A stretch of DNA of 61,093 nt from Candidatus Omnitrophota bacterium. Its GTDB lineage: Bacteria > Omnitrophota > Gorgyraeia > Gygaellales > Profunditerraquicolaceae. The position numbers and the translations under genes were made by a program. This document shows, one piece after another, positions 11,614 through 14,600 of the stretch; position 1 is the stretch's first letter, and every line of letters starts with the position of its first letter. The notes beneath the pieces are model-generated. The model saw only the letters and a list, made by a program, of their open reading frames with translations, was not told where the DNA came from and searched no databases. The DNA lies in the NCBI GenBank assembly GCA_016867115.1, contig VGKG01000006.1, forward strand, positions 1 through 61,093, given 5' to 3'.

Positions 11614-14600
11614 ATGGACGAAGGCGGTTACAAAAAAATCGAAGAAGTGAATCCTGAAGCGGGCGTAGTTGCTATTGAAGCCCCTTTCAAGTCCAGATTT
11701 AAAACCTGGATCAGGGTAGTAGCTTTTGTCGTGGCAGCTGTCTTTCTTCCTGAACAGGTAGCCCAGGCAGTGCAGTATGACTGGCGCGTGATCTGGCGCC
11801 AGCCGGGTGCTGCAACCACGCCTCTTATGCCCGGGGCAATGCCTCCTTTAAGCGGCATTGATGTCGCCCTCTCCGTAAAAAATATCCTCAAAGACGTTGC
11901 CAATAAACCGGTTACAGATATTCAGCTCTCCCCTGAAGTCGCCCTGCATTTAGACCAGCCCCTGAAAATGTCCAGCCAAAGGATAGAAGAGATTTACAAC
12001 TGGCTGAAAGGTAAACCCTGCGGCGCCAAGGCGCTCTTTGATTTCTTGAAGTTTAAAGGTAGTGCTGCCCAGGAAGCGGATATCGCAGTCATGGCCCTGA
12101 CCATTGATATCTTAAACGGCGTGGTCAGGCCCGAAGGCGACCCCAAGGTGATCAAGAGCTCATTATTCGCGCTGGCTAAGACCTCAGAGTTTTTCGGACA
12201 GAAATTATCTGCAGTCAAAACAGATTTAAATGATCTGGCAGAGAGAGCGCCCTTCATCGCGCACTTAAAGAGCGAGCACTATGTTTTAGTCACCCGCATC
12301 ACCAAAGACAAGGTCTACTATAGCGAAGAGCATAAAGAAGAGTTCCTGCCCAGAGAAAAGTTCCTCAATGAGTTTACAGGATACGCCCTGGTCTTAAATC
12401 CCGAAGAGTCCTTTACCAAAGTCCCGGAGAGCGAAGCCAAGAGCGTAAAAGGCGCAGGCAAATACTCAACCGGCGCAAGCTGGAATGACGGCGCAGGAGA
12501 CTACAATACCGGTTCTTATTCGGTGCCTGCCGGCTATTCCATGCCGCAGATGCCGAGTTTCTCCACTACCAATATCACCCCCACCTATTACTTCCCGACT
12601 GACATGAACATCAATAGCGCCGGTTTTATGGATACTACGGGAAACTTCATTAATCCGGCAGCTATCGGTTTTACTTCCATGCCTGAAGTGAGCAATGTGG
12701 ATACTTACCAGACGCACAGCGAGCCGGTCTGGTTCCACAATGGCTTTGACGGAGCAAGCTTCCACCATGATTCTAGTATGGCGCAGCAGATTGATCCGGT
12801 TTATATCAACGGCTTAGGCCTCCAGCCAGACCAGGTAACCAAGACTGGCCGCGACATGGAGGTGCGTAATGGCGCAGGCACGGTAGTAGATACCCGTCCG
12901 ATCTATCAGACCTCAACCGGCATGGAACTGACCTATTCCACGGTCCAGACCAAGGATTTTCTCAACGAGAACCTTTATGCTACAGCCAATCCTGAATCCG
13001 GCCTGCCTAAGGCGTCGGATTACTGGAAGAATCCTAATGACCCGATCTCTAATTCCTCCATGACCTACGGTGCCTATGAAGCAGGCCCGGATAACAAATA
13101 TGTGGTCATGACCATGGATAACCCGAACCAGCACCACCACTGGAACTATATGGCCGGCGCCTATATTCAGCCCGGGGATGTATTGGTCACTACCGGTAAT
13201 GACGGTTCAGCCAACCAGGCCCTCTCCGGCTTTGGCGCAGATGTAAATGCCCAGCAATACAATTATCATACGGATAAAGGGTCCTATCAGTTCAGGGTAG
13301 GAAGTAACGGGAATCTGGCCTTTGACCCTAACCAGAACGATCACGGCCGCATCAATGGCTTTACTGATAATCTGGCTACTTCAGCCCAGTTAGGCGCAGC
13401 CAACTATATCGCTAACAGCACGCAGACTGACCTGGTGATCAAAGGCCAGAGCGGGGTGAATGCGGATGGCATAGGCACAAGCGGCGGCTGGGTAGAGGGC
13501 TGGGTTTCTACCGGAGCTACTGCACTTACTGCATCCGGAGAAGACCGAAGAGGCTATCTGGGAGACCGGACATTCAATAACACCGTAACCACCCCTGACG
13601 GCCAGAGTTTTGACCAGACTGCTTCCTTTACCGGAAACACCTATATGCATTTTGAAGAAGGACAGGCTGCCACAGGCCAGGTCGGAAATGGAAGCCACTA
13701 TCAGACCGGCGATTTAGGCCCTTATAATTTTACCGGTTTTGACTTTGCCTCAAAGCAGGTTGACGGCACTGCTTACTATACCCCGCTTTTAGAGACAGAG
13801 AAAGGCGCTAAGTTTAAGTTCGGCACTAACCAAATAGAGCAGATCCTGCCGGCAATGCCCAGGAACCTTACTACTGTTGATGATTTCAATAAACTACCCA
13901 GCACTCAGGATCCGTCTGATCTCCGCAGGGATTTCCGCGCCCTAAGGGATAGCCAGCCGTTAGGCGCAACTATCGCAGGCGAAGGTTATACCGGTATCGC
14001 GACTGCCGGAGATGATGGCATGCACATCGGTTTTGGCCTTTATGACGGCAGCATGAACTTAGGCCAGGGCCTTTATTACGATGTAGCTGACCTTAATCGC
14101 CACCTGGAGTTCACCGGCAACCTGAAGATGGATGTTTCAGATTCATACCAGGGCGGAAAAGTTGCGACCTACTCTTACAATTTCGGCACCACTGATCCTA
14201 CCCGGCCCGGATATTTCGGCCATGACTCCCGCAACCAGCTGAACTGGTTCAATATGGACGCCCGTTTTGCCTATGACCAGGGCAAGTATTATGCCTATTC
14301 AGAGGTTGTCAATGACCCGACAGGTAAAGACCTGACCCGCGACCAGGCGCTCCTGCGCAACCACTTCATCAATAACCCGGATATCTTAGGCAGCGCAGAC
14401 ATGTCCGGGAACTGGGAGTGGCAGATCATGTCTGACCGCATTGATCCCGCGACCATGTCCGTAGTTTCGCAGGACTACTTAAAAGGAAATAAGGATCCTG
14501 TGGCAACCAGCCTTGGCTTATTAGTCGAGCATAATAAACAGCTTTATTTCCAGGAGACCTTTGATGTCAGTGCTTCGGCATACGAATTGATGGGCAAGGC

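Follow-up and report, generated by a model that had tools for sequence, protein, structure and literature searches.

The stretch of DNA analysed here, referred to throughout as the window, comprises 61,093 nucleotides of contig VGKG01000006.1 (contig C6) from the 1.47-Mb, 94%-complete genome of a Candidatus Omnitrophota bacterium (GCA_016867115.1). Most of it is taken up by one giant open reading frame (ORF; Table 1), which from its ATG at 11614 reads ...GYALVLNPEESFTKVPESEAKSVKGAGKYSTGASW.... Residues 1-330 of the encoded protein contain, in this order, a charged tail, a hydrophobic helix (32-50), a region of ~210 residues holding PCG (C136), HYVLV (H222) and YYSEEH (E238), the segment NPEESFTKVPESEAKSVKGA, and GKYSTGASW. 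Here we describe this N-terminus as a C39 peptidase domain followed, on the same chain, by a double-glycine-type leader, and we propose that the bond at the end of the leader, A281-G282, is probably a real self-cleavage site by which the giant protein removes its own membrane anchor. Omnitrophota encode giant proteins of up to 147,155 amino acids (aa) (10.64898/2026.06.07.730766; here and below, published work is cited from the accessible part of each source), and whether such proteins remain one chain or are processed is a question raised in both giant-protein preprints (10.1101/2023.11.21.568195, 10.64898/2026.06.07.730766).

Table 1 Features of the giant ORF and of its upstream paralog (nucleotide positions refer to the window, residues to the respective protein)
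Feature	Position	Strand	Details and basis
Paralog of the downstream domain, 547 aa	7184..8827	+	Sec-type signal peptide residues 1-43 (nt 7184-7312), no C39
Giant ORF	11614..61092	+	ATG start; >16,493 aa; runs off contig end
N-terminal transmembrane helix or signal anchor, WIRVVAFVVAAVFLPEQVA	11707..11763	+	residues 32-50; Kyte-Doolittle scan
Conserved ~80-aa extension and C39 cysteine peptidase fold	11767..12399	+	residues 52-262; Pfam, ComA match, AlphaFold2, Foldseek
Cys136, predicted nucleophile	12019..12021	+	PCG motif; sole Cys in residues 52-281
His222, predicted general base	12277..12279	+	aligns to 'HY' of ComA
Glu238, position of third triad residue	12325..12327	+	aligns to first D of ComA ADPD
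Variable loop predicted to bring the chain back to the peptidase groove	12400..12420	+	residues 263-269; length varies
Predicted cis double-glycine-type leader, V(-12)PESEAKSVKGA(-1)	12421..12456	+	residues 270-281; information-content peaks, AlphaFold2
Predicted scissile bond A281-G282	12454..12459	+	conservation drop, pLDDT drop, start of paralog homology
Downstream domain common to giant protein and paralog	12457..13254	+	BLASTP

The giant ORF encodes an 'Archaeovorin'-like Omnitrophota giant protein. Pfam matches were obtained for C39 (183-265), Glycos_transf_1 (GT1, ~5846-6016) and PEP-utilizers_C (~8661-8925), and a SEC-C motif was found at ~10176-10193. In its size, its transmembrane (TM) helix at 32-50 and its C39, GT1, PEP-utilizers_C and SEC-C content, the protein resembles the Omnitrophota giants that carry an N-terminal C39 domain, and it is the same object as the 'Archaeovorins' of West-Roberts et al., reported with C39 near signal or TM segments, glycosyltransferase domains and SecA-type content (10.1101/2023.11.21.568195).

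Homologues of the N-terminal module were collected from 61 related genomes, this one included. The module is present in 32 of them, where it nearly always opens very long frames (up to 68,606 aa). Thirty copies were aligned, excluding L002 (the paralog locus) and including L025, which ends at a contig end before the leader motif. An exhaustive search of 1.84 billion cluster representatives (50% identity) returned 299 matches at E ≤ 1e-3, 190 of them at 1e-10, and the conservation counts given below for cluster representatives are those of the best 150 of the 299. Among related loci in named records (n = 27), 15 are labelled Omnitrophota or Omnitrophica, and the others carry different labels, including Planctomycetales, Ignavibacteriae and Margulisiibacteriota, or none.

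The peptidase was recognised by PF03412 (Peptidase_C39), which matches residues 183-265 with a score of 44.6 bits (cut-off 22, E 1.6e-11), the alignment covering profile positions 46-132 of 133 only, and by a search of PDB sequences, which returned ComA (E 1.7e-4). The predicted nucleophile, Cys136, is kept in 30/30 genome homologues and in 144/144 aligned cluster representatives, and the predicted general base, His222, in all 142 representatives aligned at that position. The six commonest residues in the third-triad column of the representatives include D (105) and E (13); the giant protein has E238, which by this alignment could serve as the third triad residue. As read directly from the sequence, the C39-leader module holds a single Cys, which suits a thiol enzyme outside the cytoplasm. 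Another residue, D165 (window 12106-12108, in the motif DILN), shows no variation in either of two alignments (70 and 49 rows) and falls within the modelled interface described below.

After the C39 domain the chain continues with ...KVPESEAKSVKGA and, past the predicted bond, GKYST. An earlier note on this DNA had read here a double-glycine-type leader in cis, directly after the peptidase, and its assignment of C136, H222, F267(-15), V270(-12), E274(-8), V278(-4), G280(-2), A281(-1) and the start of G282 at nt 12457 is correct. The leader itself was borne out across the family by aligning the C39-adjacent regions of homologues, as that note had suggested: the stretch reads [LIV]-S-[DE]-x-E-A-[KM]-x-[VI]-x-G-[AGS] in 29/29 genome homologues that reach it, ending in GA (21), GG (6) or GS (2), and the residues that follow are unrelated among most of the 29. 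The -2 column is covered by 133 of the cluster representatives; G(-2) is present in 130 of them, and the remaining three read WG through a register slip of FVWG; with these three rows excluded, position -1 is A in 88, S in 18, G in 11, N in 8, D in 2, and M, T or K in one each. Position -12 is L, V or I in 129 of the 133, -8 is E in 82 and -7 is A in 77. Information content in bits is 2.64 at -12, 1.63 at -11, 1.98 at -10, 2.35 at -8, 2.32 at -7, 2.21 at -6, 3.15 at -4, 1.87 at -3, 4.17 at -2 and 2.70 at -1, then falls to 1.26 at +1 and to 0.78 or less from +2 to +12, such that conservation ends exactly at the predicted bond. On the other side, positions -18 to -13 stay at or below 0.96 bits, and the F(-15) that had also been counted as part of the leader is not conserved (0.84 bits). 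Seventeen of the 150 representatives lack the -2 column: seven are fragments or hold other domains only, five end at most 72 residues past the His, two carry the motif further on and three are motif-less.

This motif can be compared with the leaders of substrates of peptidase-containing ATP-binding cassette (ABC) transporters (PCATs), for which the consensus is L(-12)xxxE(-8)L(-7)xxxxG(-2)G(-1); there, a two-turn leader helix from -10 to -4 lies in a hydrophobic groove, -4 is the specificity position, and the double glycine sits in a very narrow cleft at the Cys/His pair (PMC6959990). The family motif agrees with the published description at -12, -8, -4, -2 and, with mostly Ala in place of Gly, at -1, and departs from it at -7, which is Ala. 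Residues 255-330 matched nothing in NCBIfam (E up to 10), and residues 260-295 matched no PDB chain by phmmer; the motif is too short for either tool, and both results are neutral evidence.

Several variants of the module were seen among the cluster representatives. A distant subtype carries the motif ...D-S-x-x-A-F-V-W-G-[SND]. On the P' side, two flavours recur among P0021-P0068, one basic, GA-[RK]-S-[RN]-[RK], and one acidic or Tyr-rich, GA-x-D-D-Y. P0087, P0101, P0114, P0129 and P0133 carry the C39 module inside the protein (Cys at 336-1667) and lack a hydrophobic stretch immediately before it; the G-A motif is retained in all of these except P0087. Such copies may have arisen from fused gene calls, or may be genuine self-cutting modules in an internal position.

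To place the leader relative to the peptidase, we modelled residues 52-330 with AlphaFold2 (AF2) from a 70-row alignment. The model reached a predicted template-modelling score of 0.76, with a predicted local distance difference test (pLDDT) of 82-97 for the peptidase fold from model residue 31 on and of 93-97 leading up to A281; across the predicted bond, pLDDT was 93 for residues 272-281, 57 for 282-291 and 43-46 beyond. The leader was modelled as helical over 272-277 (-10 to -5), followed by a short strand (279-280). The top Foldseek matches of this model are the peptidase domains of LahT with its leader (6mpz), PCAT1 and ComA (6mpz, 7n87, 8vp5, 5xe8 and 3k8u); together with 3b79 these range from E 5e-6 to 3e-4, with target-normalised template-modelling scores of 0.67-0.77 for the isolated peptidase domains among the matches, indicating a papain-like C39 fold; the alignments to these ~140-residue domains span ~133-147 columns. 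Entries related to StbD and Cpe1, 9l5u and 8ssk, ranked 16 and 17. The distant homologue P0137 (29% identical, FVWG[SN] subtype) gave a similar AF2 profile, with pLDDT 95 up to the invariant G320 and 66 thereafter. In P0137, residues 336-390 form two predicted TM helices ~15 residues past the putative cut, so that the released part would stay in the membrane.

We also modelled the peptidase (residues 52-262) and the segment holding the leader (263-311) as two chains. The score was 0.64 (0.73, 0.60 and 0.64 in the individual runs) against 0.00 for the best of three controls, and the mark used for this score is reached by 58/80 solved complexes and 2/110 mismatched pairs. At least 57% of contacts are common to the runs, and the partner pLDDT is at least 48. 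On the peptidase side the interface consists of 135-137 (P-C-G), 221-223 (E-H-Y) and 238-239, and includes Cys136, His222 and Glu238; on the partner side it consists of 266-270, 272 and 274-283. Docking of the leader in the C39 groove, which had been put forward as a check, is therefore what the models predict, the motif being placed on the active site. Since like complexes have been solved (6mpz, 6v9z), this docking shows likeness and may be model memory, rather than binding or cutting by this copy.

A comparison with the paralog upstream of the giant ORF locates the same boundary from a different direction. The N-terminus of the paralog reads ...ALASILAILLAFSPALA and then GKYSTSASW, the first G being residue 44 (nt 7313). 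By a rule-of-thumb assessment, and not by a predictor, its signal peptide has an n-region with 6 K/R and no D/E, an h-region (ALASILAILLAF) with a Kyte-Doolittle value of 2.78, and the c-region A-L-A. The earlier note held that homology between the two proteins starts at their predicted cuts, and BLASTP agrees: giant-protein residues 281-547 align to paralog residues 43-296 with 38% identity over 276 columns (E 8e-46), starting at A281/A43, at most one codon from the predicted bond. DNA identity steps sharply at the same place, from 23% in the 25 codons before the junction to 73% in the 62 codons after it. Recent gene conversion was considered as the source of the identical GKYST and rejected: of the 45 identical residues in these first 62 codons, 28 use the same codon and 17 a different one, which argues that the similarity is old and selected.

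The downstream domain, with the core ...SW.DG.G.Y..G.YS.PAG.S.P..PSFS...ITPTYYF..., stands behind the C39-leader module in the giant protein and in P0004-P0007, and behind hydrophobic N-termini without C39 in the window paralog, P0069, P0078 and P0079. This alternation, within the window and in other proteins, supports the view that the peptidase-plus-leader cassette and a Sec signal peptide can replace each other before the same domain, as the earlier note had proposed. Its further claim, that the cut frees a required N-terminal GKYST, is not supported: conservation is lacking from +1 to +12, the spacer that leads to the domain core is variable, and the GKYST present in both window genes reflects how closely the two are related. 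The downstream domain matched no family in Pfam or NCBIfam, and the Atlas model of the paralog is poor (mean pLDDT 0.30) and yielded no usable structural neighbour for it.

We next considered on which side of the membrane the peptidase would lie. A hydrophobic segment is found 40-170 aa before the Cys in 108/144 representatives, and in 102 of these 108 the N-flank carries a more positive charge than the C-flank (means +2.3 and -0.33); in the giant protein the helix is preceded by KSRFKTWIR and ends ...VAQA, followed by VQ. Through the positive-inside rule, these charges predict an N-in helix with C39 on the outer face, a topology that rests on hydropathy and charge counts and not on a topology predictor. 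The helix and the residues that follow it (window 11695-11790, residues 28-59) are conserved far beyond the needs of a plain anchor, with the consensus FKSxFKxWIRxVAFxVVxVFLPEQVAxAxxYDxxVLW, which includes an AQA-V resembling a signal-peptidase site. This extra conservation may reflect a specific membrane partner or a second processing step.

Both the enzyme and its motif stand alone in this genome. PF03412 has a single match in the 94%-complete assembly, and with a position matrix derived from 129 homologous motifs the leader site reaches 27.5 bits, against 10.0 for the next best site in the 16,493 aa and 13.7 for the best of 30 shuffles. One enzyme with one adjacent strong motif suggests that the simplest substrate is the bond 45 residues past the last conserved element of the fold. 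Among all six-frame ORFs of at least 60 aa in the genome (1,150,531 aa), the runner-up, at 20.6 bits, lies in a protein named by eye as a DnaJ-like chaperone; it is the only other score above 14 bits, and we considered this protein as a trans substrate and took the score as chance. Polyprotein-style processing with leader specificity was dropped as well, given the lack of an internal site in the visible 16,493 aa, the C-terminus beyond the contig being unseen. The C39 domain is not fused to an ABC exporter, as no ABC domains were found in the 16,493 aa, and a search for a partner PCAT exporter in the genome gave none: PF03412 occurs once, and the sole PF00664 (ABC_membrane) match is a 597-aa frame on contig C7.

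The module is also widespread in the phylum. With query residues 100-290 at E ≤ 1e-5, it was found in 137/301 sampled phylum genomes (this one included), in 124/248 high-quality genomes and in 97/206 genera of the sample, in open frames of up to 82,151 aa. These are related genomes and a sample only, in which absence from incomplete genomes carries no weight.

Taken together, these observations suggest a model in which the N-terminus of the giant protein is a self-removing anchor, made of a short cytoplasmic tail, an N-in TM helix, a C39 domain outside, a loop and a 12-residue leader, [LVI]-[ST]-[DE]-x-E-A-K-x-[IV]-x-G-[AGS]. The N-terminal helix would insert in the membrane and the C39 domain (C136/H222/E238) would fold on its far side. 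The downstream leader would then fold back into the groove of its own peptidase, with a helix from -10 to -5 and with G(-2)-A(-1) inside the narrow cleft of the active site, and a single cut after A281 would part anchor and peptidase from the remainder, freeing G282 as the mature N-terminus, the same outcome as the signal peptidase cut expected in the neighbouring paralog. As the leader, on the P side, would stay on the peptidase as its C-terminal tail, the enzyme would be left product-occupied and act once only. We extend this model to a bolder proposal, which we hold tentatively: the TM-C39-leader cassette might be an autonomous, single-turnover export anchor that removes itself, a portable alternative to a cleavable signal peptide, used by Omnitrophota for proteins that need many minutes to more than 1 h of translation. 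During translation the growing giant chain would be kept at the membrane by the anchor, and the lone-Cys peptidase would time the release of its N-terminus independently of signal peptidase. By analogy with StbD, the peptidase is possibly redox-gated.

A number of observations weigh against self-cleavage at A281-G282. In C39 peptidases an oxyanion-hole Gln is expected a few residues before the catalytic Cys. It was not found in the giant protein, where the residues before the Cys are N-W-L-K-G-K-P, nor is a Gln conserved there among the 30 homologues; a 'Q-C-H' motif has been named for C39 peptidases (PMC13642728), and D165 may replace the missing Gln here. At the leader, -7 is mostly Ala (77/133) and not the Leu of the published 'hydrophobic knot', and -1 is mostly Ala and not Gly, with Ser, Asn or Asp in the distant subtype. 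P0073, P0087 and P0139 have enough sequence after the His, yet carry no motif. A recombination-prone domain boundary would likewise give an abrupt loss of conservation, and the two structure predictors may have memorised PCAT-leader complexes that are already solved. As to topology, a crude hydropathy scan found no strong TM helix between residue 50 and ~7122, which leaves the GT1 domain at ~5846-6016, of a usually cytoplasmic type, without a strong TM helix between it and the anchor and makes the topology uncertain. Finally, auto-processing by the StbD C39 domain needed reducing conditions, which a periplasm may not provide.

Some of these points would also fit a leader-like segment that is never cut, a pseudo-substrate or latch that silences the peptidase or stabilises its fold, the true substrates being other proteins (e.g. 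of prey or of the cell envelope) or sites in the unseen C-terminus of the giant protein. The departures from the classical GG leader, with Ala at -7 and mostly Ala, Ser or Asn at -1, and the lack of an oxyanion Gln before the Cys are in keeping with this; moreover, C39-like domains that bind without cutting exist, e.g. in HlyB, and docking predictions cannot separate a substrate from an inhibitor. Such non-cutting domains, however, have lost the catalytic Cys, whereas here Cys and His are kept throughout (144/144 and 142/142). The near-invariant G(-2) with a small residue at -1 is what a scissile site requires, the sequence after -1 is free to vary, and no other motif-bearing protein was found in the genome; we therefore consider a latch unlikely. 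We regard as far less plausible still that the likeness to a leader is incidental to a conserved C-terminal helix located where a domain ends, and has no bearing on substrate binding. The motif is short, limits of conservation often coincide with domain ends, and the segment alone matched nothing in the NCBIfam and PDB sequence searches. Canonical C39 nevertheless ends earlier, at residue 265 by the Pfam profile and after ~133-147 columns by Foldseek, the conserved positions coincide with the published leader consensus except for Ala in place of Leu at -7, and the predicted contacts include Cys136 and His222.

The site might also be cleaved in another manner, either in trans between copies or by a module that faces the cytoplasm and is coupled to dedicated export through the giant protein's own TM cluster and SecA-like parts. 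PCAT C39 domains do act in trans and in the cytoplasm (PMC6959990), the giant protein contains a TM cluster (~9159-10895) and SEC-C (~10176-10193), and its GT1 and PEP-utilising domains suggest cytoplasmic stretches. The charge bias across the TM helix (102/108 representatives) points the other way, and the paralog, P0069 and P0078, in which Sec-type signal peptides precede this downstream domain, argue for export. AF2 docks the leader in cis without strain (pLDDT 93), and the StbD precedent is strictly intramolecular. Taken together, these points make either variant improbable in our estimation.

Self-removal of the anchor by a cut in cis would be related to several known systems and identical to none of those considered here. 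The C39 domains of PCATs and of ABC transporter maturation and secretion (AMS) proteins (ComA, LahT, PCAT1) have the same fold and the same Cys/His pair, and PCAT leaders have the same register, with hydrophobic -12, E at -8, hydrophobic -4, G at -2, small -1 and a helix from -10 to -4. Unlike these, the giant-protein C39 is without an ABC transporter fusion and is predicted to be extracytoplasmic, whereas PCAT C39 is cytoplasmic; its leader follows the peptidase on one chain instead of heading a small precursor protein of its own, has Ala at -7 and precedes a cargo of >16,000 residues. A functional parallel is LapG, a periplasmic cysteine protease that removes the N-terminal retention part of the giant adhesin LapA at a small-residue pair. 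LapG is a separate protein of another family, regulated by cyclic di-GMP (c-di-GMP) in a type I secretion context.

Experimental precedent for cleavage in cis comes from the toxins StbD-CT and Cpe1, whose auto-processing is redox-regulated and in which C39 cuts its own chain after a di-glycine; in StbD-CT the cut after GG is obligately intramolecular, with C183A and GG-to-SS controls (bioRxiv 10.64898/2026.05.07.723447). In these toxins the GG lies upstream of the peptidase, which is itself the released toxin, cutting GyrB/ParE, and sits at the C-terminal end of a CdiA-like effector that is paired with an immunity protein. In the giant protein, by contrast, the putative site is downstream of an N-terminal C39, the peptidase would be the part discarded, and the full -12 to -1 consensus is present. 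The releasing peptidases found in polymorphic toxins (Zhang et al. 2012, PMC3482391) and the C80 peptidase of multifunctional autoprocessing repeats-in-toxin (MARTX) proteins (PMC8277102) share the principle of a conserved peptidase within a large secreted protein that frees a variable remainder by autoproteolysis, and belong to different families (HINT, ZU5, caspase-like, PVC-metallopeptidase, C80). In the accessible part of the survey by Zhang et al., C39-like domains figure as toxin domains and not as N-terminal releasing peptidases (PMC3482391).

For the Omnitrophota giants themselves, West-Roberts et al. 2023 reported N-terminal C39 near signal peptides and suggested autoproteolysis, giving no site in the text available to us (10.1101/2023.11.21.568195), and a 24-protein PF03412 architecture cluster of giant proteins has been described (10.64898/2026.06.07.730766). 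The two preprints propose cutting into several products, whereas we found one motif in 16,493 aa, which argues against the published idea that C39 chops the giant protein into many pieces. In their accessible parts, neither preprint names a cleavage site, a cis leader or an equivalence with signal peptides, and supplementary tables might list sites. Likewise, within the accessible literature we found no description of a leader encoded downstream of C39, of a site in these giant proteins, of an equivalence between C39 cassette and signal peptide, or of the single-site result. The earlier note had regarded the whole logic as undescribed; this applies to the site, the downstream polarity and the signal-peptide equivalence, and not to the N-terminal C39, the suggestion of autoproteolysis or the intramolecular cut, for which West-Roberts et al. 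and StbD are precedents.

The arrangement thus offers a first concrete candidate processing site for these giants, reduced to one bond, one nucleophile and a soluble construct of ~280 residues. It would extend the biology of C39 from exporter domains acting in trans and an upstream-cutting toxin to a downstream, cargo-releasing arrangement, one that is widespread in a phylum (137/301 sampled genomes, 299 clusters at 50% identity). If the cassette is indeed such a portable anchor, its ~230 residues would also amount to a naturally occurring self-cleaving tag for the N-terminus, with free choice of the residue at +1.

Further features were noted elsewhere in the giant ORF and around it. About ten hydrophobic helices cluster at residues ~9159-10895 (window ~39085-44300), and the SEC-C zinc-binding motif (PF02810, E 3.2e-9) lies inside this cluster at window 42139-42192, which fits the SecA-like content reported for such proteins. 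At the beginning of the window, positions 1-6990 hold four ORFs on the same strand, of 476 aa (listed from base 1), 324, 243 and 1286 aa, none of which matched a Pfam family above cut-off. Between the paralog and the giant gene lie an IS200-like transposase (PF01797, E 5.6e-13; window 9059-9640) and an ORF6N/Rha-like regulator (PF10543, E 5.2e-32; window 10527-11027); mobile or phage-derived DNA has entered the stretch between the two genes.

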